NCBI GenBank assembly: GCA_016181175.1
Contig: JACOZV010000002.1
Span: 115-64,114, forward strand
Reading direction: 5' to 3'
Source of the DNA: Candidatus Yanofskybacteria bacterium
GTDB lineage: Bacteria > Patescibacteriota > Minisyncoccia > 2-02-FULL-40-12 > IGHO2-01-FULL-4-A
Length of the DNA stretch: 64,000 nucleotides
In this document: in pieces, positions 14-63,773 of the stretch
How the letters are laid out: each line of letters opens with the position of its first letter
Position numbering within the stretch: the first letter of the stretch is position 1
Notes under the pieces: generated by a model
What the model was told of the DNA's origin: nothing
The model's database searches: none
Seen by the model: only the letters and a program-made list of their open reading frames with translations
Program-made: the position numbers and the translations under genes

Positions 14-1720
14 ATGGTTAACTCTGAAAACACATCAACTGACTATGATATAAAATTTATCAAAATCGGGGCAAGTATTAACAGTACAAATGTAGTTTGG
101 AGTGCATTGGGAATGTATGATGATAACGGGTCAATATACGGGGCCGATATAGGGTTTTCGACTCCTGTTGGCGGCGGTTACTCGCTGACCTTTGGTACGA
201 ATAATGATATAGTCGGAAATCCCATAACACGCATGACCATTAATAATTTTGGCAATATTGGAATGGGAACAACAACACCGGCAATGAAGTTGCATGTGGC
301 GTCCACGTCGGACGAGGCCGTCCTGCGTTTGCAAGATAGCGACGGAACTTGCGATTATAACCCGGAATCTACCGATACCGGTTTTTCTTGTTCATCTGAT
401 GCCAGGCTCAAAACTAATATAAGGGAAGCATCTCCAGCTCTTCCGTATTTGTTGGGCCTTCCAATAAAAGATTATGTGGTCATATCTTCGCAGGAAGAAA
501 AAACCGGTGTAGTCGCGCAGGATTTACTGGAAAAGTATTCAGAACTGGTTTCACTTGGCGACGATGGTTTTTACAAAGTTACGCCGGTAACTTCATGGAA
601 AGTAGTTAAGGGCATACAGGAACTTGATGCTAAAATAGCCAGTTTGTCGGCGCAATTAAACAACAACGGAGTTATTGTCGATTCTGGCAGTTCCGGCGGC
701 AGTGTTACAATTAATAACCGGTTATCTGTTGATGATATACTGGGAGTTTACGCATCGGGGAGCGCGGTGGCGCTAGAACATTCAAGCGAGTTTGACAGTC
801 TAAAGTTAAAAGCGGTAAAAAATTTAATTTTTGATGCGCCGGTTTCGATATTCCAGAGTATTTGGGCTAAAGGAGATTTTATAACCGATGGCATTAAAAA
901 AACTTATTATACCGTGGCAAATATCTTACCGAACGTGGATATTGCGACAATGGCTGCCAACTGGGTTTCAAGGGATGTAATCATTTCAAATGACGCCGAT
1001 TTGGATACGCTGTCGCTGTTCAGCGGTAATGGGGCGCAGGCGGCGGAGCAATCAAAGGCAGACTTGGCCGAAAACGGCAACTATATAGCAACTTATGGTG
1101 TAGATTCCACGAGGGGAGAAGTGCAACTAAGTGGGTCATCTGATTTGGTGGGTGGTGAGGCAAAAATTTACTTTGATTACTCATTCACGGCCTTGATATC
1201 TGATGTAGCGTCAATTAAGGTCATAGTTACGCCTACGACGAATACAATCCGCGGACAACTATATGTTGCAAACAAAACACCCTATGGGTTTACTATCCGC
1301 GAGCTCAACGGACTAAGCGATGGTAAATTTGACTGGTTGGTGATTGCAAGAAGAAAAGGATATGAAGGCGCAGATGGGCAAAACACAAACAGTCAAACTC
1401 AAACAACAAATGAGCCAACTCCGTTTCCGATACCAATTCCAGAGCCGAGCCTATCAGAAAATCCAACGCCATCTACGGAGCCCTCAATTAACCTCGAGTC
1501 TAGCGTGTCTCCGATTCCAACACCAGAGATATTATTGACCCCAGAACCGATCTTGTCTGAATCGCCAAGTCATACCCCATTAGAGCCGACCCCGGAACCA
1601 CCCGCCAATAGCGGAGTTACGGGACAGGTACCAACACTTTCTTCTGGTCCTACACCAGAATCAAGTGTGGAAACGATACTAAGTCCAACCCCAACCCCGA
1701 CTGACGCGTTGACACCATAA
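14..1720 (+). CDS. Surface/secreted protein with a tail-fibre-like N-terminus, an internal intramolecular-chaperone (Peptidase_S74 / endosialidase-chaperone-like) domain, and a C-terminal Pro/Thr/Ser-rich tail. Its 5' end may lie upstream of the window.
   Basis: The motif SSDARLKTNI...GVVAQDLLEKYSELV matches the conserved S-D-x-R-L-K-x-N-I ... G-x-I-A-Q-E-V autoprocessing signature (from memory). It is preceded by a tail-fibre-like GMGTTTPAMKLHV motif. The last ~150 aa are a PT/PS-rich linker-like stretch. The reading frame is open back to base 2. Confidence 0.6.
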   Translation: MVNSENTSTDYDIKFIKIGASINSTNVVWSALGMYDDNGSIYGADIGFSTPVGGGYSLTFGTNNDIVGNPITRMTINNFGNIGMGTTTPAMKLHVASTSDEAVLRLQDSDGTCDYNPESTDTGFSCSSDARLKTNIREASPALPYLLGLPIKDYVVISSQEEKTGVVAQDLLEKYSELVSLGDDGFYKVTPVTSWKVVKGIQELDAKIASLSAQLNNNGVIVDSGSSGGSVTINNRLSVDDILGVYASGSAVALEHSSEFDSLKLKAVKNLIFDAPVSIFQSIWAKGDFITDGIKKTYYTVANILPNVDIATMAANWVSRDVIISNDADLDTLSLFSGNGAQAAEQSKADLAENGNYIATYGVDSTRGEVQLSGSSDLVGGEAKIYFDYSFTALISDVASIKVIVTPTTNTIRGQLYVANKTPYGFTIRELNGLSDGKFDWLVIARRKGYEGADGQNTNSQTQTTNEPTPFPIPIPEPSLSENPTPSTEPSINLESSVSPIPTPEILLTPEPILSESPSHTPLEPTPEPPANSGVTGQVPTLSSGPTPESSVETILSPTPTPTDALTP

Positions 1721-6422: not shown

Positions 6423-6460
6423 AACTAATTTTATAATTTTTAATTTTATAATTTTATAAA

Positions 6461-6506
6461 TAATTTTTAATGTTTAAAAATTAAAACATTAAGATTTATT
6501 TAAAAA
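6461..6506. repeat. AT-rich intergenic repeat (copy a; reverse orientation) with the hairpin core TTAATGTTTAAAAATTAAAACATTAAGATTTATTTAAA
   Basis: Reverse complement of the TTTAAATAAATCTTAATGTTTTAATTTTTAAACATTA motif found at 10893-10975, 14045-14130 and 63690-63770. Lies in the rplJ-rplL spacer. Confidence 0.55.
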
Positions 6507-6513
6507 CTAAAAA

Positions 6514-6912
6514 TTGGAAATTAAAAATTTAAACAAAATGAACAAAGAGGATTTCATAAAGGATATTGAATCTATGTCTGTGGTCGAATTGAACGAATTA
6601 GTTAAGTCTCTTGAAGAGAAATTCGGTGTATCCGCCGCGGCTATGGCTGCGCCGGCAGCCGGAGCGGCAGCTGAAGAGGGAGTGGGAGCAGCCGAAGAAA
6701 AGGATAGCTTTTCGGTAATTTTGAAAGACGGGGGACAACAGAAGATACAAGTTATCAAGGTTGTTCGCGAAGTAACCGGCAAGGGTCTTAAAGAAGCCAA
6801 GGATTTGGTTGATGGCGTGCCGCAAACCGTCAAAGAAGGAGCCAAAAAAGAAGAGGCCGAGGAACTCAAAAAGAAGTTAGAAGATGCAGGCGCGACAGTG
6901 GAACTAAAATAA
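6514..6912 (+). CDS. rplL: 50S ribosomal protein L7/L12
   Basis: 132 aa; Ala-rich flexible hinge ([16 protein letters not shown]); C-terminal domain with the motif [20 protein letters not shown]. Confidence 0.92.
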
Positions 6913-10449: not shown

Positions 10450-10884
10450 ATGCTTATTGGAGAATACAAACACACGCTTGATCCCAAGAAGCGTCTATCT
10501 ATCCCGGTCAGACTTAGAAAAGAAATCGGTGATCGAGCGGTGCTGACCAGGGGTTTGGATAGCTGTCTTTTTCTTTTTCCAATGAAAGAATGGGAACAGT
10601 TGGCGGACAAGTTGGGCAAATTGCCTTTCGGCCAGCAGGACACAAGGGGATTTGTGAGGTTATTGTTGTCGGGTGCTTCCGAAGTTGAAATGGATCAGCT
10701 GGGAAGAATATTGATACCTGATTTTTTGAAAGATTACGCAGTGCTTAAAAAAAATGTAGTTGTCGCCGGGCTTTTCAACAGATTAGAAGTTTGGGATGAG
10801 GAACGATGGACGAATTATAAAAATAGTCTTGAAAAAAATAGCGACAGAATAGCGGAGAAGTTGGGGGAGCTTGGGGTCATCTGA
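10450..10884 (+). CDS. mraZ: Transcriptional regulator MraZ
   Basis: 144 aa; duplicated MraZ fold; first gene of the dcw cluster, upstream of rsmH. Confidence 0.9.
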   Translation: MLIGEYKHTLDPKKRLSIPVRLRKEIGDRAVLTRGLDSCLFLFPMKEWEQLADKLGKLPFGQQDTRGFVRLLLSGASEVEMDQLGRILIPDFLKDYAVLKKNVVVAGLFNRLEVWDEERWTNYKNSLEKNSDRIAEKLGELGVI

Positions 10885-10985
10885 ATTTTGTAATTTTGTA
10901 ATTTTGTAATTTTTAAATAAATCTTAATTTCTAAATGTTTAAAAATTAGGACATTATTTATAAAATTAAAAATTTAAAAATTGGT
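10885..10985. repeat. AT-rich intergenic repeat (copy b) preceded by the (TAATTTTG)x3.5 microsatellite
   Basis: CTGAATTTTGTAATTTTGTAATTTTGTAATTTTTAAATAAATCTTAAT...AAATGTTTAAAAATTAGGACATTATTTATAAAATTAAAAATT shares the TTTAAATAAATCTTAAT and AATGTTTAAAAATTA motifs with copies a, c and d. Lies in the mraZ-rsmH spacer. Confidence 0.5.
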
Positions 10986-14034: not shown

Positions 14035-14140
14035 AATTTTTAATTTCCAATTTTTAATTTTTAAATAAATCTTAATGTTTTAATTTTTAAACATTAGAAA
14101 TTATTTATAAAATTATAAAATTAAAAATTATATATCAGCC
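14035..14140. repeat. AT-rich intergenic repeat (copy c)
   Basis: AAATTTTTAATTTCCAATTTTTAATTTTTAAATAAATCTTAATGTTTTAATTTTTAAACATTAGAAATTATTTATAAAATTATAAAATTAAAAATTA is nearly identical to copy d at 63664-63773. It abuts the truncated murF. Confidence 0.6.
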
Positions 14141-39895: not shown

Positions 39896-39947
39896 TTATG
39901 TCCGGCCGAAAAGCCGGTTTTATTTTTATTTATCCACACCCCCATCT

Positions 39948-39972
39948 TACTTAGGAGTTGAACTCCTAAGTA
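39948..39972. repeat. REP-like 25-bp palindrome (left flank of the HUH transposase gene)
   Basis: TACTTAGGAGTTGAACTCCTAAGTA. Confidence 0.7.
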
Positions 39973-39993
39973 AAGTCAGATAGAATAACGCAA

Positions 39994-40641
39994 ATGATAA
40001 AACCCAAATTTACAACTGGCGAGTTTTACCACATATTCAATAGGGGAAATAATAAGAGGGCGATTTTTTTGAAACCATTTGATTTAATGAGGTTTTTGCA
40101 AAGTATGCAGGAGTTTAATACCAAAGAACCAATTGGCAGTATTTATATCAATTCATTCAAAAACGAAGAACTTAGAAGTTCAACTCCAAAGTTAGAGAAA
40201 ATAGTTGATTTTGTATGCTACTGTTTAAACCAAAATCATTTCCACATTCTTATTAAACAAATAGCGGATGGTGGTATAATTAAGTTTATGCATAGACTTG
40301 GTACTGGATACACAAACTATTTTAATGGAAAGAATAAAACTAGCGGAGCTTTATTCCAGGGGAGATATAAAGCTATCCATGTAGATACTAACGAGTACCT
40401 ACTTTATTTAAGTGCCTACATTAATCTGAATTACAAAGTCCACCAACTTAGGAGTTCAACTCCTAAGTTGTGTAAATCAAGCTGGGAGGAATACACTAAT
40501 GTCATGAATGGATTTTGTAATAAAAAAATAATTATGTCGCAGTTTAACAGTGCGGCAAATTATAAAGATTTTGCCGAGGAAGCTTTAAAAATAATAAGAA
40601 ACAGAAAGGATATGGAAAAATCTCTAAACCTTATCACTTAG
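39994..40641 (+). CDS. tnpA: HUH Y1 transposase, IS200/IS605 TnpA-like / REP-associated tyrosine transposase (RAYT)-like
   Basis: HuH motif HFHILI, catalytic Tyr context GALFQGRYK, N-terminal YHIFNRGNNKRAIF. Flanked by identical palindromes. Two internal copies of the palindrome are translated in-frame as LRSSTPKL (aa 59-67 and 152-160). The stop codon lies inside the right palindrome. Confidence 0.7.
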   Translation: MIKPKFTTGEFYHIFNRGNNKRAIFLKPFDLMRFLQSMQEFNTKEPIGSIYINSFKNEELRSSTPKLEKIVDFVCYCLNQNHFHILIKQIADGGIIKFMHRLGTGYTNYFNGKNKTSGALFQGRYKAIHVDTNEYLLYLSAYINLNYKVHQLRSSTPKLCKSSWEEYTNVMNGFCNKKIIMSQFNSAANYKDFAEEALKIIRNRKDMEKSLNLIT

Positions 40642-40659
40642 GAGTTGAACTCCTAAGTG
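40635..40659. repeat. REP-like 25-bp palindrome (right flank)
   Basis: CACTTAGGAGTTGAACTCCTAAGTG. Confidence 0.7.
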
Positions 40660-40682
40660 AGTGATTTTGATACAATTAGTGC

Positions 40683-46885: not shown

Positions 46886-47299
46886 TTATGGATTGCAATT
46901 TCCGGCAAGGATGTAGCCGGCTGATATTGCCGCGGTTTCGGTGGCGAAAGTAATTTTGTTTTTTTCGGTGATTTTGGAAGCGCTTGGGCACCATGGGAAA
47001 TGATAGATTTTGTTGGCGCTATTTTTAGAAGCAACGACGAAACTAGGCGTTAGGTTGTAGGTGCTAGGTTCTAGCTTTGAATTTTGAATCCCCTTTTCAT
47101 TGTTTCCTGTTGCCTGCCGACTATTAACCGGTTCAGTTATTGTAATTGGCAACTTTTGCTTATGTAATATTGAAATTTTACCAAGGTTGAAACTGATCAT
47201 TGAAATGAAAATAACAACGAAAGTTAAAACAATATCTGACTGGTACATTTTGACTAATTTTAGTAATTTTGCTAACATAAGATTAATAAAATGGCGCAT
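46886..47299 (-). CDS. Hypothetical membrane-anchored protein (the real start may be the internal Met near 47248)
   Basis: One TM (IVLTFVVIFISMISF); C-terminal H/C-containing motif YHFPWCP...AGNC. Confidence 0.4.
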   Translation of the reverse strand: MRHFINLMLAKLLKLVKMYQSDIVLTFVVIFISMISFNLGKISILHKQKLPITITEPVNSRQATGNNEKGIQNSKLEPSTYNLTPSFVVASKNSANKIYHFPWCPSASKITEKNKITFATETAAISAGYILAGNCNP

Positions 47300-47563
47300 A
47301 CAAAAGCTAAATCTACAACTAAGTTAGGCCGCGATTCCGAATCCAAACGCTTGGGCGTCAAGCTTTCAGACGGCCAGGTTGCTATTCCAGGCAACATTAT
47401 TATCCGTCAGCGTGGCAGCAAGGTTATTGCTGGTTCGGGTACTCGCATGGGCAGTGATGATACTATCTATGCCATAAATACTGGCAAGGTTAAGTTTTCA
47501 ACCAAAAAAAAGAACAATTTCGATGGCTCCAGACGATTGGTTAAAATTGTAAGCGTAGTATAG
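47291..47563 (+). CDS. rpmA: 50S ribosomal protein L27
   Basis: MAHTKAKSTTKLGRDSESKRLGVK, the L27 signature. Confidence 0.9.
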   Translation: MAHTKAKSTTKLGRDSESKRLGVKLSDGQVAIPGNIIIRQRGSKVIAGSGTRMGSDDTIYAINTGKVKFSTKKKNNFDGSRRLVKIVSVV

Positions 47564-47577
47564 GTAAAGTCAACCCC

Positions 47578-47632
47578 ATCTAGATCACATAAAAAACATG
47601 GTTATAACCATGTTTTTTATGTGATCTAGATT
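47578..47632. terminator. Bidirectional terminator (about 24-bp perfect hairpin)
   Basis: CATCTAGATCACATAAAAAACATGG-TTATAA-CCATGTTTTTTATGTGATCTAGATT lies between convergent rpmA and rplI. Confidence 0.75.
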
Positions 47633-47645
47633 AATAATCCTACGT

Positions 47646-48092
47646 CTATTTATTAGCTGAAATTAAAATCTTAATTTTGCTTTTAACTTCCGGGTGCAGT
47701 TCTATTTCAACTTCGTGTTCACCTAACATCTTGAGATGTTGTGGTAAGTTTATATTTTCTTCTTTAAGGTTTATCCCCTTCTCCTTGACGGCCGCTAGTA
47801 TTTTTTTCTCATTAACCGAACCGTAAAGATGCCCTTCTTCATTGGCATCTTCCTGGATTTCAATAGTTAGACCTTCCAGTTTTTTGGCGAATTCTAGCGC
47901 CCCCTCCTTACCTGTTTCATATTGTTTCTCGCGTTTTGACTTCAATATTTCTGCCTGTTTTTCAGCATCGGCTGTTGCGGGTTTTGCCAAATTTTTTATG
48001 AACAAAAAATTGCGGGCATAACCATCAGCCACATTCTTGATATCCCCTATTTGGGCTACACCTTTTATGTTTTGCAAAAAAATTACTTTCAT
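47646..48092 (-). CDS. rplI: 50S ribosomal protein L9
   Basis: [31 protein letters not shown]9-typical. Confidence 0.9.
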
Positions 48093-51194: not shown

Positions 51195-52261
51195 TGGCGT
51201 AATTCTTCGGGTGTTACATTGCTTTTACTCATTATTTCGCTTCTCCTTTTTAACATACTTGGTAGTAGTTTGGCAACCTTAAAAAATTCTAAAAACACCG
51301 ATGGTTCAAATATCAGAAAATATATCCCAAGCCGCAATTGCCGCCATAAAATATGTGGTAAATCTCGCAAGAGATTAATGGTAAAATCATTTTTAATTAT
51401 CGTGAGTGTAGTGTTTCTCAAATCAAGGCGGCGTTTAAACATGGGGATAGTTTTGCGGATTTTTATAAACTCTTTCCATCCTCCGGCTAGTGTCTTGGTA
51501 GTTTTACGATCATGCCAAGCAATGACGCTTGGCGCGTAAACTTGTTTCCAGCCGAACAATCTCATCCGCCATGCCAGATCAAGATCGTCGCCGTACCAGA
51601 AATAGTCACGGTCTATAATTTGATTGTTTTGTGATTCTAAACGGCAATCTTCCAGTGCTTGTCGGCGGAAAATCGGTACAGCTCCCTCTACGGCAAAAAT
51701 TTCACGCTTTTGATTGTATTGTCCGGAATCAGTTTCTCCATGTCCAATATTTACAATTCGGCGGGATTTAAAAATCTTAAACCCACAAGTATCAATAATT
51801 TCGGTGTCATCACAAGACCCATTTATGGTCTTGCGATGACCATGGATTGGATTATGGTCCAGTTCATATTTATAGACTTTTGCTTGGAGAGCTCCGATTT
51901 GGTAGTCCCGTTCCATTACTTCAACGGCATTTTTAATAAAATCTTTATCCAAAATTACGTCTACCGAGAGTGCGATAATATATTTACCGTGACTCTGTTC
52001 AAGCAATTTTTCTTGGCCGGGCCACATGCCCAAATTTTCTCTAGATTCTACTAGCGAAAATTTGGGCGACTGTCCACCGTCCACCGTCCACCGTCCACTT
52101 TTTAAAATTTCTCTTGTGGAGTCAGTCGAATTGTTATCTAAAATATTAAGTTCAATAAACTCATGCGAATAAGATTGTTCCAAAATCGAATCCAAACACC
52201 GGCGAATATATTTTTCACCATTATGGACAACAATATTTATAGAAACTAATTTACTTGGCAT
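51182..52261 (-). CDS. Family 2 glycosyltransferase containing a (CCACCGT)x3 heptanucleotide repeat
   Basis: GT-A N-terminus (VSINIVVHNGEKYIRRCLDSIL); the repeat at 52073-52097 encodes GRWTVDGGQ. Confidence 0.75.
   Translation of the reverse strand: MPSKLVSINIVVHNGEKYIRRCLDSILEQSYSHEFIELNILDNNSTDSTREILKSGRWTVDGGQSPKFSLVESRENLGMWPGQEKLLEQSHGKYIIALSVDVILDKDFIKNAVEVMERDYQIGALQAKVYKYELDHNPIHGHRKTINGSCDDTEIIDTCGFKIFKSRRIVNIGHGETDSGQYNQKREIFAVEGAVPIFRRQALEDCRLESQNNQIIDRDYFWYGDDLDLAWRMRLFGWKQVYAPSVIAWHDRKTTKTLAGGWKEFIKIRKTIPMFKRRLDLRNTTLTIIKNDFTINLLRDLPHILWRQLRLGIYFLIFEPSVFLEFFKVAKLLPSMLKRRSEIMSKSNVTPEELRQWII
52073..52097. repeat. Heptanucleotide tandem repeat (CCACCGT)x3.5 inside the GT2 gene
   Basis: GTCCACCGTCCACCGTCCACCGTCCAC. 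Confidence 0.8.
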
Positions 52262-52742: not shown

Positions 52743-54159
52743 TAATCGGTAACTGGTAACTAGTAACTGATGTCAAAAAATTGCGATGCGATTTTTTCAG
52801 AAGAAGCCAAAGGAACCAAAGCGCAAGAATTAATGCTGGCAAGCCCGTTTCGGCGGCGATATGGAGGTAAAGATTGTGCGCTGACGAACCTGCCTTGGCT
52901 CTGGCCAAATCTTCCCCCACCACGGCCGGAAAATTTCCTATTCCGACACCCAGCAATGGGTGTTTTATTATTGAACGGATTGAATCTTTCCAAATTTCAA
53001 TTCGGCGTGCATTGGAGGTTTCGGAGATATCTAAAACGGAGCGGGCGCGTTTGGCAAGCAAACCAGTTGAATCCTTTTCTGCCATGAACTGATTTGAGGC
53101 GATAATATAATATGCCACGCCGAATAATAAAAAGAAAATAACCAAGAAAGAACTAATATAGGCAAAAACTGCACGACATGTGATGTTGGGCGTGCACGAC
53201 ATGCGATGTCGTGCAATAAGAAAAATGGCCCAAACGGAAGAAGCGGCTCCGGCAGCCCAAATGCCGCGGGTGCCAGTGAGAATAAGTGCTAGAAAAATTA
53301 CAGGAATAAAAATAATAATCACAGAAGCGCGGGACTGTAGCATGGTTTTGAAATTGCCACTTTTTTCAGTAACTCGTTTGAGAGCGATAGTCATAACTGC
53401 CGGTAATCCCAAAAGCATAAATATGGGAAAAGAATGTGAATCTGGGAAAATTGAGAACATTCGCAAAGATAATTGATTGCCGAAATAAGCAAACCACGTA
53501 TTGGCTTTAATGGCCGTTTCAGCCCACACATTGCCGTACATGTTACGTTCTACTACGCCGCCCCAGAAATCTACGAACTGAAAAATATCCATAAAATATG
53601 TAGAAACAAGCTGAACCATGCCGACCAGAGCCACAAATATCGTAGGTATAGCAACATTTTTGATAATTCGCTGACAAAAATCTTGGTTTTTGCGAATTAA
53701 ATCATAAATTACAATACCAATCATAGAAAGATTAACAAAATAGATAATTCTTTTGACTGCTAAAACATGGCTTTGTGCTTGAGAGATTGATAATATCATC
53801 AGCAATAACAAGGCCAAGAGAATAAAAGACGAGCGTGAAAATCTGGGCATAATCTTTGGTTTTAATACCCAAAACCATTTCAAAAAAATCAGTCCGGAAA
53901 AAATACGCCACATATTTAGAGAATCAAAGCCGGCGGTTATGGGGATGGCGACAAAAAATGGAATTGAACGGACGAAGAATACAGTTGAGTTTTCAAGTGA
54001 CGCCATCAATACATAAACTGCAAGCGCAATTGTCCAAAAAGGCACAACCGTCCGCGGCAGAATCCCGCTTGCTACCAAGGCGATCACCGCGGGTTGAGAT
54101 ACAAATAAAATATTTAGGGTCGAATAATTTCCAAAAATTTGTCTGTATGTTTTTGCCAT
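52576..54159 (-). CDS. O-antigen ligase/polymerase (Wzy_C)-like polytopic membrane protein containing a (GTAACTG)x3 repeat
   Basis: At least 11 TM segments; SAHNLYLHIAAETGLPALILALWFLW matches the Wzy_C signature. The repeat at 52748-52768 encodes SYQLPI. Confidence 0.7.
   Translation of the reverse strand: MAKTYRQIFGNYSTLNILFVSQPAVIALVASGILPRTVVPFWTIALAVYVLMASLENSTVFFVRSIPFFVAIPITAGFDSLNMWRIFSGLIFLKWFWVLKPKIMPRFSRSSFILLALLLLMILSISQAQSHVLAVKRIIYFVNLSMIGIVIYDLIRKNQDFCQRIIKNVAIPTIFVALVGMVQLVSTYFMDIFQFVDFWGGVVERNMYGNVWAETAIKANTWFAYFGNQLSLRMFSIFPDSHSFPIFMLLGLPAVMTIALKRVTEKSGNFKTMLQSRASVIIIFIPVIFLALILTGTRGIWAAGAASSVWAIFLIARHRMSCTPNITCRAVFAYISSFLVIFFLLFGVAYYIIASNQFMAEKDSTGLLAKRARSVLDISETSNARRIEIWKDSIRSIIKHPLLGVGIGNFPAVVGEDLARAKAGSSAHNLYLHIAAETGLPALILALWFLWLLLKKSHRNFLTSVTSYQLPIIIYFASLLIFLPWVLIYSLTDVAMFDERAFLLFAVTAAIISGTGKILPDNTLSNQ
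52748..52768. repeat. Heptanucleotide tandem repeat (GTAACTG / GTAACTA)x3 inside the Wzy-like gene
   Basis: GTAACTGGTAACTAGTAACTG. Confidence 0.7.
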
Positions 54160-55217
54160 GTATATTTTGTCAAAATGCTCTGACGGGCATTTTTTATTTC
54201 TTGTCGTTTTGTCTCGTTGGTTAATCCCTTCGTAATTGCTTCGGCGATTGAATTGGGATCATCAGGGTTAGAAACAAAAAAGGCGTTATCCCCAAAAATC
54301 TCATGGCTTATTTCAGAATCAGACACAACCGCTGGTACGCCATGTCCCAACGCTTCAAGTGGCGGTAAGCCGAAGGCTTCTTTGGAAGAAACGTATACTA
54401 ACAGTTTAGCATGAGCGTAAAGCTGGACTAGTTCATTTTCGCTGACGTATTCTTTATAAATTATTTTTTCTTTGCCGATACGATTATTTATTTCTTTAAC
54501 AAGTGTTTTTATAATTGGTGGGTTATATTTATCTTTGCCGATTGCGACTAATTTTAAATCTGGAAAGCGTGATGATATTAATTCAAAAGCCAACATGGTT
54601 TCGCGCAGGTGTCTTCTTGGAAATGCTTGGCCGACATAGAGAATGTAATTGGTAATTGGTAATTGGTAATTAGTAATTGGTTTGGGTTGGTCAACACCGA
54701 GTTGGTTTACTACAATGCGGGTAGGGTTTATTTTGAACAACTGAGCCATTTCTTTTTTTGAAGTTTCGGAGATAGCCATAATTTTGGTAGCGTGTCTTGC
54801 TGTCCACCAGCCGGCAAAGATTTTGTAGGCAAGTTTGTAACGGAAGGGCAATGTACTGGTATGAATTTCGTAATAAATATCCTCGGTCAGCATAACCAGT
54901 GATTTGCCGAGAAATAAAATCGGAAGCATGTAATTAGGCAAAAACATTAGATCGAGTTTTTCGAACCAAAGTTTAATTGGCAGAAGTAAATAATAATACA
55001 AGCTGAATGATGATACTCCCGATACTTTCTTTACAAAAATAGGATTATCCAAAAACGGTAATTTGGGAATGTGTGATTTGAAATAAAGAAAAAATCTGAA
55101 CTCGCTGGTGAGTTCAGGTCTTAGTGATATTTCTTCAAGAAGATTTTTTACGATTCTACCGATCCCCCATGACTCGAGACCCTCAATAGATTCGCATTCT
55201 ATGCCAATTTTAAGCAT
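54114..55217 (-). CDS. Family 1 (GT4-type, GT-B fold) glycosyltransferase containing a (GTAATTG)x5 repeat
   Basis: EAFGLPPLEALGHGVPAVVSD motif. The repeat at 54645-54679 encodes PITNYQLPITNY in the inter-domain linker. Confidence 0.8.
   Translation of the reverse strand: MLKIGIECESIEGLESWGIGRIVKNLLEEISLRPELTSEFRFFLYFKSHIPKLPFLDNPIFVKKVSGVSSFSLYYYLLLPIKLWFEKLDLMFLPNYMLPILFLGKSLVMLTEDIYYEIHTSTLPFRYKLAYKIFAGWWTARHATKIMAISETSKKEMAQLFKINPTRIVVNQLGVDQPKPITNYQLPITNYILYVGQAFPRRHLRETMLAFELISSRFPDLKLVAIGKDKYNPPIIKTLVKEINNRIGKEKIIYKEYVSENELVQLYAHAKLLVYVSSKEAFGLPPLEALGHGVPAVVSDSEISHEIFGDNAFFVSNPDDPNSIAEAITKGLTNETKRQEIKNARQSILTKYTWQKHTDKFLEIIRP
54645..54679. repeat. Heptanucleotide tandem repeat (GTAATTG)x5, with one GTAATTA variant
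   Basis: GTAATTGGTAATTGGTAATTGGTAATTAGTAATTG. Confidence 0.85.
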
Positions 55218-56121
55218 TTATTTTTCCGAACCTTCCTTTATAAAAATCTAATACCCCAGCTAATATTGCTTTTGATATTTCAACATTGTGCCTCAATATA
55301 ATTTTAGTGAGCTGTTTAATTATAATAAAAAATGACCAAAATGGCAAGGAGAATTTAACCCAAAACGGCCCATTTTTACAGTTAAATAAGTGAGCATTTC
55401 TGTAGTGGTAGTGGAGTAATATGGGTGCTCCCAATGATGAGGTAGACGACGATTGTTTATGATGAATCAGTTCTTCAGGCACAATTTTGAGCTTGTAGCC
55501 CGCTTTTTGCGCGCGCAGGCAGTAATCAGCATCTTCAAAATAGAGAAAATAGCGTTCATCAAACAATCCAATCTTTTCTAAAACTTCTCGTTTGATAAGC
55601 ATACAAGCTCCTACAACATACTTAGTGGTTGAACTACTAAGTGCACTTAGTAGTTCAACCACTAAGTGCGAAAGTTCGGGTTTTAGCCAGCCAATTTTGC
55701 CGCCATAAATTATTTGGTTACCCTCGTTTATTGCGGGTCCTGCAATGCCTATTTGCTGATCAGATTCTGTTGCTTCTACTAATTTTGATAACGCATCCTT
55801 TCTAATTGTCGTATCGGGGTTCAATATCAAGACATAATCAGCGCCATGCTCTAACGCATGTTTGATACCCAGATTATTTCCGCCAGAATAACCAGAGTTG
55901 TAAGAAGTAGTAAGTAAAAAGTAACAAGTAGCAGAACTTGTATTGCCTGTTTTTTCTATCCAATTTCTAACCTCGTCGATTGCATTGACATCTGAGCCGT
56001 TATCCACTATAATTGTCTCATAGTTCTGATAGTCCAGTTCTTTAACAGAATTAAGGCACCTAATGGTGTCTTGAGAATTATTATATTGGAGGATGACAAT
56101 GAAAACTTTAGATTGATTCAT
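55210..56121 (-). CDS. Family 2 glycosyltransferase with an in-frame REP-like palindrome doublet
   Basis: GT-A N-terminus (VFIVILQYNNSQDTIRCLNSV). The 46-bp palindrome at 55621-55666 is translated as LVVELLSALSSSTTK. Confidence 0.75.
   Translation of the reverse strand: MNQSKVFIVILQYNNSQDTIRCLNSVKELDYQNYETIIVDNGSDVNAIDEVRNWIEKTGNTSSATCYFLLTTSYNSGYSGGNNLGIKHALEHGADYVLILNPDTTIRKDALSKLVEATESDQQIGIAGPAINEGNQIIYGGKIGWLKPELSHLVVELLSALSSSTTKYVVGACMLIKREVLEKIGLFDERYFLYFEDADYCLRAQKAGYKLKIVPEELIHHKQSSSTSSLGAPILLHYHYRNAHLFNCKNGPFWVKFSLPFWSFFIIIKQLTKIILRHNVEISKAILAGVLDFYKGRFGKINA
55621..55666. repeat. Perfect 46-bp palindrome made of two inverted REP-like units (CTTAGTGGTTGAACTACTAAG / CTTAGTAGTTCAACCACTAAG). 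It is related to the RAYT-flanking palindrome CTTAGGAGTTGAACTCCTAAG.
   Basis: CTTAGTGGTTGAACTACTAAGTG|CACTTAGTAGTTCAACCACTAAG; the second half is the exact reverse complement of the first. Confidence 0.8.
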
Positions 56122-57239
56122 TAGATTGATACCTTTTTCACCAAATCCGTTATCTCGTTTTTAAACCTTTTTTCTGAAAACCGTTCTGCGGTTTTTTTTA
56201 TTTTTTCGGAATCATAATTGGGCAAATTTTGTTTTAGACGGCGGATGCCGTCGGCTAGCACCTCTTCGGTTGGGTCGTCAAAAAATTCGCCATTTATGCC
56301 TTCTTGTATATATTCTAACGCGCCGCCGCGCTTGAGCGCCAATACTGGTTTGCCGTAGCTCATTGCTTCGATGGGTGTAATGCCAAAATCTTCCTCTTGC
56401 GGCATTATAAACGCTATACAGTTTTGATAATAATGGGGCAGTTCTTTGTCAGAAACAAAACCCAACATTTTAATATTTTTTAAATTTGAGATTTGAGATT
56501 TGAGATTTTTGTTTTCGGGGCCATTTCCTATTATGATGAGAGGCCAGCCTAATTTATTAAAAGCCCCGATTGCTATATCTATATTTTTATGTTTAAAAAG
56601 ACGGCTTACAATTAAAAAATAACCTTTAGTAATTGGTAACTGGTAATTAGCAACTGGTAATTTGGTTACCGGCGGGTATATTACGGAAGAATCTCGCTGG
56701 TAGTATTTCTTTATGCGTTGGCGGACGTTTTCAGAAATTGCGACAAAATGATCAACTCGTGTTGAGGCGTGCCGGTCCCAGATTCTTAGAAAGTGTTGGA
56801 CCAAAGATGCCCACAACTTGGGTGTAAAACTGATTTCTTTTTTATATTCTGCGTGCCAGTCCCATAATTGCCTGGTGGGGCTGTAACAATAACAGATGTG
56901 TTTTGTGCGCGGTTTGAGCACAAGTCCTTTGGCAAATGCGACAGATGATGAAATTACCAAGTCAAAATCACTTAAATCAATAGTCTCAATGGCAATTGGC
57001 AGAAGCGGAGTTAGCAATTTATGACTTTGGAAAATGCGATAGAAGTTTTGAGTAAAAGTTGTTCTAATTTCTGCTTGCGGCAAAAACCAATCGGTAAATT
57101 TTTTATTATAAAAAAGTGTATAAATCGGAGCTTGCGGAAATATGTCATGAAATGTTTTCAATGTCTTTTCTGCCCCGCCAACACCTAAAAGCCAGTCATG
57201 AATTAAAGCAATCTTTATGTTTTGGGTATTGTTTGACAA
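56121..57239 (-). CDS. Family 1 (GT4-type) glycosyltransferase containing a degenerate (GTAAYTG)x5 repeat
   Basis: EDFGITPIEAMSYGKPVLALKRGGALE motif. The repeat at 56629-56663 encodes LPVANYQLPITKGY. Confidence 0.8.
   Translation of the reverse strand: MSNNTQNIKIALIHDWLLGVGGAEKTLKTFHDIFPQAPIYTLFYNKKFTDWFLPQAEIRTTFTQNFYRIFQSHKLLTPLLPIAIETIDLSDFDLVISSSVAFAKGLVLKPRTKHICYCYSPTRQLWDWHAEYKKEISFTPKLWASLVQHFLRIWDRHASTRVDHFVAISENVRQRIKKYYQRDSSVIYPPVTKLPVANYQLPITKGYFLIVSRLFKHKNIDIAIGAFNKLGWPLIIIGNGPENKNLKSQISNLKNIKMLGFVSDKELPHYYQNCIAFIMPQEEDFGITPIEAMSYGKPVLALKRGGALEYIQEGINGEFFDDPTEEVLADGIRRLKQNLPNYDSEKIKKTAERFSEKRFKNEITDLVKKVSI
56629..56663. repeat. Degenerate heptanucleotide tandem repeat (GTAATTG GTAACTG GTAATTA GCAACTG GTAATTT)
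   Basis: GTAATTGGTAACTGGTAATTAGCAACTGGTAATTT. Confidence 0.7.
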
Positions 57240-63663: not shown

Positions 63664-63773
63664 ATTAGGAATTAATTTTTAATTTCCAATTTTTAAATAA
63701 ATCTTAATGTTTTTAATTTTTAAACATTAGAAATTATTTATAAAATTATAAATTATAAAATTATGTTTAAAAG
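63664..63773. repeat. AT-rich intergenic repeat (copy d) in the rpsK-rpsD spacer
   Basis: CAAATTAGGAATTAATTTTTAATTTCCAATTTTTAAATAAATCTTAATGTTTTTAATTTTTAAACATTAGAAATTATTTATAAAATTATAAATTATAAAATTA is nearly identical to copy c. Confidence 0.6.

Follow-up and report, generated by a model that had tools for sequence, protein, structure and literature searches.

A probable REPtron-like unit in Candidatus Yanofskybacteria: related palindromes around and within the gene of a RAYT-like Y1 HUH nuclease

The window analysed here is a stretch of 64,000 nt from a Candidatus Yanofskybacteria bacterium (contig JACOZV010000002.1 of assembly GCA_016181175.1), in which the gene of a RAYT-like Y1 HUH nuclease of 215 amino acids (aa) is flanked by copies of a short palindrome and carries two further copies within its open reading frame (ORF). 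The segment 39947-40660 is probably a REPtron-like unit, that is, a vertically inherited gene for a RAYT-like nuclease/ligase together with palindromes of the locus that change in common and are overwritten from one another. A REPtron is reportedly a RAYT/TnpA_REP gene flanked by its cognate repetitive extragenic palindromes (REPs), as in the E. coli yafM type, and is said to be known from the work of Nunvar in 2010, Bertels and Rainey in 2011 and Ton-Hoang in 2012. The palindrome core CTTAGGAGTT[G/C]AACTCCTAAG was found in four copies around and inside the gene, starting at 39950, 40171 (degenerate), 40447 and 40637, and a first-pass annotation made from the letters alone had already placed hairpin copies at both flanks and two in-frame copies inside the gene at these positions. 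The copies are designated U (upstream), I1 and I2 (internal) and D (downstream) in the following list of the features of the locus.

39947..39973, no strand: upstream palindrome U, TTACTTAGGAGTTGAACTCCTAAGTAA, non-coding, with 13-nt arms and a central G, between the terminator of the upstream gene and the ORF
39958..39986, plus strand: putative sigma-70-like promoter with -35 TTGAAC, a 17-nt spacer and -10 TAGAAT, predicted by a consensus scan only
39994..40641, plus strand: ORF of the RAYT-like Y1 HUH nuclease, 215 aa, TnpA_Y1 class 2, with motifs closest to subclass 2.1
40171..40191, plus strand: internal palindrome I1, CTTAGAAGTTCAACTCCAAAG, degenerate, in-frame LRSSTPK (residues 60-66), in a loop of low confidence and variable length that precedes the HuH strand
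40234..40245, plus strand: HuH motif N81-H-F-H84, with N81, H82 and H84 invariant in 29 sequences
40417..40431, plus strand: Tyr motif Y142-I-N-L-N (the Y---N of class 2 TnpA_Y1), with Y142, L145 and N146 invariant, assigned with the published motif table and located on helix 133-144
40444..40470, plus strand: internal palindrome I2, CAACTTAGGAGTTCAACTCCTAAGTTG, central C, in-frame Q-LRSSTPK-L (residues 151-159), in the loop that links the Tyr motif to the conserved SSW
40634..40660, no strand: downstream palindrome D, TCACTTAGGAGTTGAACTCCTAAGTGA, central G, holding the stop codon TAG at 40639-40641 and followed by GTGATTTTGA (terminator-like)

The perfect core with a central G, CTTAGGAGTTGAACTCCTAAG, is present at U (39950-39970) and at D (40637-40657), and the perfect core with a central C at I2 (40447-40467). 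Together with their copy-specific outer pairs, these three copies form perfect palindromes of 27 nt with arms of 13 nt. I1 (40171-40191) deviates from the core at two positions, both of them synonymous third-position changes and each breaking stem pairs. Due to the fact that the core was matched 0 times in 100 dinucleotide-preserving shuffles, none of the four copies is expected by chance. Folded as single-stranded DNA (ssDNA), U, I2 and D reach -9.9 to -11.4 kcal/mol (z -5 to -7), and I1, in which the hairpin is lost, -3.8 kcal/mol (z -1.5). A perfect I1 palindrome was found in the relative L095, the I2 copy of which has a mismatch.

Both internal copies are translated in the frame CTT AGR AGT TCA ACT CCN AAG, i.e. 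as LRSSTPK. They had previously been described as lying in opposite orientation to the flanking copies, which is true of the central base, a C instead of a G, but of nothing beyond it. The central C is explained by the reading frame, since with G as the central base the frame CTT AGG AGT TSA ACT CCT AAG would contain TGA. The +1 frame of the palindrome contains TAG, so that the ORF ends here within D, and the third frame, LGV[EQ]LLS, is used in other genes. Throughout the family, coding copies have TCA or TTA centres and non-coding copies prefer TGA or TAA; in many homologues D shares the frame of I1 and I2, its central TGA serves as the stop codon and the proteins end in ...LLLSG or ...LLLRG.

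The identification of the gene product as a Y1 HUH protein of the IS200/RAYT type, proposed at first sight of the sequence, was confirmed by domain and fold comparisons. Residues 71-144 matched the Pfam family Y1_Tnp (PF01797) with 29.4 bits at a cut-off of 23, and a database search yielded 830 homologues, almost all of them from Patescibacteria and, where named, called transposase or RayT. An AlphaFold2 (AF2) model of the protein was built on 29 sequences and had a predicted local distance difference test score (pLDDT) of 83. With this model, Foldseek returned as the best match 4ER8_A, the E. coli RAYT-REP complex (E=1e-5, TM(target) 0.71), followed by 2A6M, 2VJV and 2XM3; the matches after 4ER8 are the IS608 and ISDra2 transposases. 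A sequence search of the PDB with the protein gave no meaningful match, and a Pfam scan of the protein gave no helix-turn-helix (HTH) domain.

Among 29 homologues, N81-H-F-H84 and Y142 of YINLN are invariant. According to the motif scheme published for TnpA_Y1 (PMC6006769), FQ represents the W/Q motif and Y---N(P) the Tyr motif. The segment GRYK, initially taken for the Tyr motif, would on this scheme belong, as FQ(GRYK), to the W/Q motif, with YINLN as the Tyr motif. In the AF2 model, Y142 is located on helix 133-144 and Y125 beside strand 126-130. From motifs and model, the catalytic residue is probably Y142 of YINLN and not the Tyr of GRYK. On visual comparison with Table 1 of PMC6006769, the motifs NHFH, LFQG, YINLN and SSW match those of TnpA_Y1 subclass 2.1, a placement which holds at the level of motifs only.

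For a survey of the gene family, 80 homologue loci of Patescibacteria with 34-63% aa identity were taken from GTDB genomes and scanned for palindromes; slot counts refer to 81 loci, and palindromes with <=3 mismatches in 21 were regarded as one palindrome family. Relative to the gene start, the palindrome centres peak at -100..0 (68 of 80 loci), +150..250 (50 loci), +400..500 (about 30 loci) and +600..750 (68 loci), over a background of 0.03 per 50-nt bin. Four places are shared: upstream of the gene, the loop before the HuH motif, the segment right after the YINLN Tyr motif, and the stop codon. In 57 of the 81 loci, one palindrome family is found at internal as well as external slots; I1 is occupied in 49 loci, I2 in 30, both in 15, and U together with D in 46. 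The palindromes are radically unlike between loci (e.g. TGTAGACGTCGGACGTCTACA, GACGAGAGTTGAGCTCTCGTC and CTTGGAGGCTCGGCCTCCAAG) and alike within one locus. In an alignment of 28 homologues, both slots contain peptides resembling L-[RGS]-x-S-[TA]-x-K that co-vary per protein (LSGSTTK, LRGSTSK and FRSSAPK, each twice), and an identical peptide of at least 5 residues was found in both slots of 54 out of 117 homologues versus 6 out of 116 cross-protein controls. Since these slot-shared peptides are diverse (LGHSMSK, LGNSIPK, LRSEAPK and others) and the DNA matches within each locus, the conserved feature is the DNA palindrome and not the peptide. The four-slot layout characterises the gene family as a whole and is not peculiar to this genome.

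The suggestion that the LRSSTPKL segments are loop insertions was checked by alignment, with different outcomes for I1 and I2. The I1 slot is a variable-length loop between PIGSIY and the strand before the HuH motif, in which some members carry dimers and homologues with a palindrome exceed those without one by 7-10 residues; judged from the alignment, I1 looks like an insertion into a permissive loop. The I2 slot follows directly on the Tyr motif (YINLNxxVH-QLxxxxxKL-xKSSW), and its length equals that of the canonical NPxxAGLVxxxxxYxWSS of distant relatives and of palindrome-free members, which indicates that I2 is not a simple insertion. At many loci the I2 palindrome runs into the conserved flanking codons, CAC CAA CTT ... 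AAG TTG GTG, i.e. HQL...KLV. Both palindrome-encoded segments are low-confidence coil in the AF2 model, with a pLDDT <50 for residues 153-156. The internal copies are not recent insertions in this lineage; judged by the refuting condition that the first-pass annotation had set, they are long-standing. Both slots hold palindromes even in homologues of as little as about 35-45% identity, with lineage-specific sequences that agree with the flanking copies of the same locus.

Evidence for vertical inheritance was obtained from the genomic context. The gene has the same neighbours, an M23 peptidase (plus a small ORF) and Pyr_redox_2, in the window and in the relatives L096 (74% aa identity) and L001 (63% aa identity); the gene after the HUH ORF is the Pyr_redox_2 oxidoreductase. 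The conservation of these neighbours in three genomes implies that the gene is inherited vertically and is not hopping, and the initial view of a transposing insertion sequence (IS) with hairpin ends is contradicted by it. Over the same divergence the palindrome has been replaced: the window has CTTAGGAGTT, L096 has CTGAGGAGTT at U, TTGAGGAGTT at I2 and half-converted copies at I1 and D, and L001 has CTGAGAAGTT..AACTTATCAG (CTGAGAAGTT..TATCAG) at U, I2 and D, with I1 retaining CTTAGAAGTT. The palindrome thus changed in parallel in several slots. Half-converted copies in close relatives support copying, and at nine loci identical imperfect palindromes with the same stem mismatch are present in at least two slots, which points to copying between slots rather than to independent selection for pairing. 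Among four close relatives, 19 of the 21 core positions of U and 18 of the 21 of D are invariant, versus 11 of 76 (14%) other non-coding positions (p=1e-10); conservation of third codon positions in these relatives was higher in I1 and I2 than in the rest of the ORF (57% vs 30%), but not significantly so (p=0.07). Paralogues within one genome (L042 and L050, L077 and L078) are divergent and carry different palindromes. The window has one copy of the gene in 64 kb.

Further palindromes were detected away from the locus. Other genes of the lineage also carry them in frame, namely those for a family 2 glycosyltransferase (GT2) and cysteinyl-tRNA synthetase (CysRS) in the window, and GyrA and others in metagenomes. 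Every related palindrome of the window outside the locus lies in frame within a gene and is a sequence variant.

55620..55667, minus strand: GT2 dimer, CTTAGTGGTTGAACTACTAAG and its complement head-to-head, a perfect 48-nt palindrome, in-frame HLVVELLSALSSSTTK within the GT2 ORF 55210..56121
23028..23048, minus strand: third variant palindrome, CTTAGTAGCTGAGCTACCAAG on the plus strand, in-frame LGSSATK within the cysteinyl-tRNA synthetase ORF 22647..24062

The GT2 dimer consists of two imperfect 24-nt palindromes in a REPIN-like arrangement. It is common to the homologues P0121, P0122, P0123 and P0126 (68-73% identity) and absent from P0124, P0125, P0129 and others, at a variable loop, and its peptides co-vary among the holders (LVVELLS/LSSSTTK and LVVEPLS/LSGSTTK); the alignment marks it as a clade-specific insert in a variable loop. 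An origin without net insertion, which had been suggested by a homologue of 41% identity, was overturned by the closer homologues. Its retention in four homologues indicates that dispersed copies are long-lived and are not updated to the current variant of the RAYT locus. On the coding strand the cysS copy includes one G-T pair, and it is placed in a linker of varying length among solved CysRS structures. Both variants correspond to palindromes of sister RAYT lineages (the LSGSTTK and LSSSTTK types), and on this sequence evidence they are most simply explained as fossils of earlier palindrome variants.

An exact-pattern scan of metagenome contigs gave 14 loci. One of them, positions 119-164 of a groundwater contig (L094), contains the exact window palindrome, which forms a head-to-head dimer there and is read in frame as part of the GyrA C-terminal domain (NLGVELLSELRSSTPK), and in-frame copies were also found in ORFs of L088, L092 and L093. 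Several of the 14 loci were uninformative as they belong to unrelated organisms (the GC-rich L081 and L086, and L082, L084 and L090). Dispersed copies were counted in the locus flanks of <=10 kb each, 1.01 Mb in total, in which 21 further copies of the palindrome of the respective locus (<=3 mismatches) were present, nine of them in stop-free frames of >=150 codons. In the window and these flanks, the palindrome family is low-copy and largely intragenic.

In the REPtron-like reading, the enzyme would recognise the palindromes of its locus as hairpins on ssDNA, by analogy with TnpA_REP, which cuts REPs in single-stranded form on the 5' or the 3' side of the hairpin and carries out strand transfer (PMC8266576). 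The copies resident at the locus would be repeatedly overwritten from each other, either by the enzyme itself, cutting and transferring strands at the hairpin feet on ssDNA, or by template switching or short-tract conversion over the few hundred bases that separate the palindromes; the copying step itself is inferred. The internal copies, which are embedded in two surface segments of the protein, could survive because the loops tolerate any 7-8 residues and the unit length (21 or 24 nt, 48 for dimers) keeps the frame; at the 3' end the same palindrome provides the stop codon. Occasionally the enzyme may deposit copies elsewhere, many of them in frame in variable loops of ordinary genes such as those for GT2, CysRS and GyrA. 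Upstream of the gene, the loop of U and the start of its 3' arm form a near-consensus -35 (TTGAAC), the -10 (TAGAAT) ends 7 nt before the ATG, and its T-A---T is invariant in an alignment of four relatives. With U overlapping the probable promoter, protein bound at U could repress its own gene. The putative promoter at 39958-39986 would yield an almost leaderless HUH mRNA.

The unit resembles the REPtron (Corneloup 2021, PMC8266576) in its Y1 HUH protein, with a model best matching 4ER8, in the single vertically inherited gene bracketed by a lineage-specific, co-evolving palindrome, here with both U and D, in paralogues with different palindromes, and in other copies in the genome, some of them inverted dimers (REPIN-like). 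It differs from the REPtron by perfect palindromes of 21-27 nt with loops of 1-3 nt, a very low number of dispersed copies in the flanks and the window, many of them intragenic, two extra copies inside the ORF and one copy supplying the stop codon. Several of the observations weigh against the REPtron-like reading. The protein is far below the cut-off of the curated RAYT hidden Markov model (equivalog NF047646, 13.2 bits vs 80), and the GT[AG]G guide of REPtrons was found at the 5' foot in only 3 of 128 flanking copies, with GT[AG]G present as 3' outer stem in 39 of 128. With about 1 dispersed copy in 48 kb of flanking DNA, the pattern is not that of classical REP populations. U and D stand inverted to each other in 23 cases and direct in 23, a random arrangement that does not hint at a defined strand-specific reaction. 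The internal copies are dispensable, as they are absent or decayed in about one third of the loci and I1 is decayed in the window, and the origin of I2 without a change of length is not accounted for. The palindrome feet common to the copies are short for RecA-type conversion. Finally, the binding and cutting of hairpins by the window protein is taken as most likely by analogy, and the mechanism keeping the internal copies matched is a proposed one.

An alternative, which is considered unlikely, is that the palindromes are functional cis-sites of the enzyme on its own gene and not tolerated passengers. They would serve either for negative autoregulation (by binding to U at the promoter, with I1 and I2 acting as roadblocks) or as a self-editing switch, in which a flip of the hairpin loop from TCA to TGA or a swap of hairpins would turn the ORF off and on. 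The persistence of both slots through complete turnover of the palindrome sequence in a very diverse family would fit such sites, as would the exact codon position of I2 at unchanged length, the good -35 that the loop of U provides for a conserved -10, and the division into TGA/TAA-centred non-coding and TCA/TTA-centred coding copies, with the central TGA of D as stop codon in many homologues. However, the presence of both internal copies in only 15 of 81 loci, the decay of I1 here and the mismatch in I2 of L095 mean that neither is required; an internal TGA-centred copy truncating the ORF was seen in no locus, and the promoter overlap is not general, the loop sequence varying between lineages. 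A related self-substrate idea, for which the prospects are poorer still, is that the enzyme rewrites the hairpin cassettes of its own ORF to match the flanking copies and could toggle the ORF by a loop flip from TCA to TGA. If true, this would constitute a self-editing, self-limiting HUH system and a record of a DNA-recognising protein co-evolving with sites in its gene.

The view of the first-pass annotation, in which the locus is an autonomous IS of the IS200/IS605 type and the internal copies are recent miniature insertions similar to the palindromic elements of Rickettsia (RPEs), is very unlikely to be correct. Its basis was the hairpin-ended layout with a Y1 HUH protein, and two of the present results agree with it, namely the position of I1 in a length-variable loop, with holders 7-10 residues longer, and the GT2 dimer, which is a true lineage-specific insert. 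The elements of this group (IS608, ISDra2) share with the locus the catalytic fold, hairpin recognition on ssDNA and hairpins near both gene ends. They are, however, multi-copy and mobile, have imperfect hairpins at distinct left and right ends, a Y---Q motif and often tnpB, none of which was seen at the window locus, where a single copy in 64 kb has no tnpB, one palindrome at both ends and the Tyr motif Y---N. Moreover, the chromosomal position is kept in three genomes at 63-74% aa identity, the slots are family-wide and I2 came without a change of length. By synteny and slot conservation, the IS view is largely refuted.

Marginally less credible again is a role of the palindromes at the RNA level, where they would form hairpins of the transcript (5' leader or attenuator, translation pauses, 3' terminator or stabiliser) and be kept alike by one RNA-binding factor or RNase. 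D together with GTGATTTTGA does score as terminator-like, all four copies are on or beside one transcript, and in other bacteria a role of REPs as 3' RNA elements is known. Against this, stem mismatches showed no excess of G-T, the wobble on the sense strand (34 G-T vs 47 A-C), the orientation of the arms is random, the predicted promoter would place U upstream of the transcription start, the same palindromes occur inside other genes in both orientations, and the T-run after D is not conserved in relatives. An Rfam scan of the window yielded two tRNAs only and nothing at the locus. The negative tests (wobble, U/D orientation, guide and Rfam) argue against a role in RNA structure, and they mark the palindromes as atypical REPs; the wobble test in imperfect stems likewise lends no support to a hairpin specific to one single strand. 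A functional protein motif LRSSTPK, selected twice with incidental DNA palindromy, would be in line with the synonymous nature of the two substitutions in I1 of the window and with the recurrence of L-x-S-S-T-x-K-like peptides in the nearest homologues, but its probability is negligible and it is refuted in practice by peptide diversity and by the match to non-coding copies, given that other lineages have wholly different peptides (VDVGRLQ, LGHSMSK, LGNSIPK) encoded by palindromes matching their non-coding flanking copies, that both segments are low-confidence coil and that the same DNA is read in another frame or orientation as LGVELLS in other genes.

The REPtron-like unit has a direct precedent as regards the internal copies. 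Quentin, Siguier, Chandler and Fichant 2018 (PMC6006769) described REPs that lie in frame within tnpA_REP genes of subclass 2.4 (Bertels group 4; Cyanobacteria and Bacteroidetes) and which they interpreted as insertions in peripheral loops of proteins with WQ and YIxNNP motifs. The effect of such palindromes on the cognate transposase gene, presented at first as a phenomenon of its own, is thus already on record. As in subclass 2.4, cognate REPs are found here inside a transposase-like gene with the frame intact. Unlike in subclass 2.4, one slot precedes the HuH motif and the other directly follows the Y motif, the proteins have the motifs FQ, YINLN[YP] and an SS-tail, the phylum is different, I2 came without a change of length, the short palindromes have no GTAG guide, and concerted evolution is documented. 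By eye, the proteins resemble subclass 2.1 (Bertels group 1, 'TIRYT') in their motifs (NH[YF]H, FQ, Y[IV]xLN(P) and a C-terminal SS), and likewise in a length of about 215-240 aa and low intragenomic copy number. Subclass 2.1 was reported without REP-like sequences and with HTH-like C-terminal domains (PMC6006769), whereas REP-like palindromes flank most members of the family studied here.

In-frame REPs within genes and REP-supplied TAG stop codons are likewise known (Di Nocera 2013, PMC3733652). Similar to the RPEs and to these intragenic REPs, the palindromes of the lineage are short, stand in frame in loops of functional proteins, among them those of DNA-metabolism and tRNA-synthetase genes, occur as singles and dimers and have TAG-supplying ends. 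They also share with the RPEs a presence or absence among homologues, as seen for the GT2 dimer (four with, others without), the variable cysS linker and the variable loop of I1; at I2, presence and absence alternate at constant length. They are unlike the RPEs in that the units are 21-24 nt long and tied to a specific Y1 gene hosting them at fixed positions. RPEs, reportedly described by Ogata in 2000 and 2002, are said to be palindromic repeats located in frame in protein loops, with a length of about 100-150 bp for RPE-1. To our knowledge, no cognate enzyme gene carrying RPEs has been identified.

Literature searches retrieved the precedent in other phyla and no prior description in Patescibacteria/Candidate Phyla Radiation. 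In-frame REPs within tnpA_REP genes are already known from subclass 2.4; new here are the phylum, a 2.1-like subclass reported as REP-less, two fixed slots plus a stop-codon copy, a length-neutral slot and concerted evolution at a syntenic locus. REP/RAYT biology thereby comes to include the Candidate Phyla Radiation as well as a TnpA_Y1 subclass reported without REPs, and in these tiny, gene-dense genomes the 'extragenic' palindromes are for the most part found within genes, among them that of the enzyme presumed to handle them. With a lineage's own palindrome copied three to four times at a syntenic locus, dozens of enzyme/hairpin pairs form a covariation set, which could reveal how Y1 HUH enzymes read hairpins and is relevant to programmable ssDNA tools. 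The locus is moreover a clean case for concerted evolution of very short repeats, and the palindromes account for short unalignable peptide inserts (LxSSTxK, LGVELLS and similar) in GT2, CysRS and GyrA of Patescibacteria.

Other repeats were also observed in the window. Heptanucleotide tandem repeats are present in glycosyltransferase ORFs at 54645-54681, 56629-56660, 56484-56508, 55900-55930, 52072-52098 and 52748-52769, including (CCAATTA)x5 on the minus strand of the ORF 54114..55217, translated as PITNYQLPITNY; since a change by one 7-nt unit shifts the frame, these are candidate phase-variable surface-glycan genes. Just downstream of cysS, a periodic array at 21993-22419 has periods of 18, 36 and 72 nt, the core GAGTGAGCCA and several overlapping open frames with a 6-residue periodicity (GSLxxxGLL). 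A perfect palindrome of 54 nt at 47578-47631, with 27-nt arms and no spacer (ATCTAGATCACATAAAAAACATGGTTA/TAACCATG...), lies between the convergent ORFs 47291..47563(+) and 47646..48092(-) and is unrelated in sequence to the RAYT palindromes. AT-rich intergenic blocks containing 7-8-nt repeats (TAATTTT/TTAAAAA) with inverted symmetry were found at 6426-6533, 10884-10982, 14035-14132 and 63672-63772.

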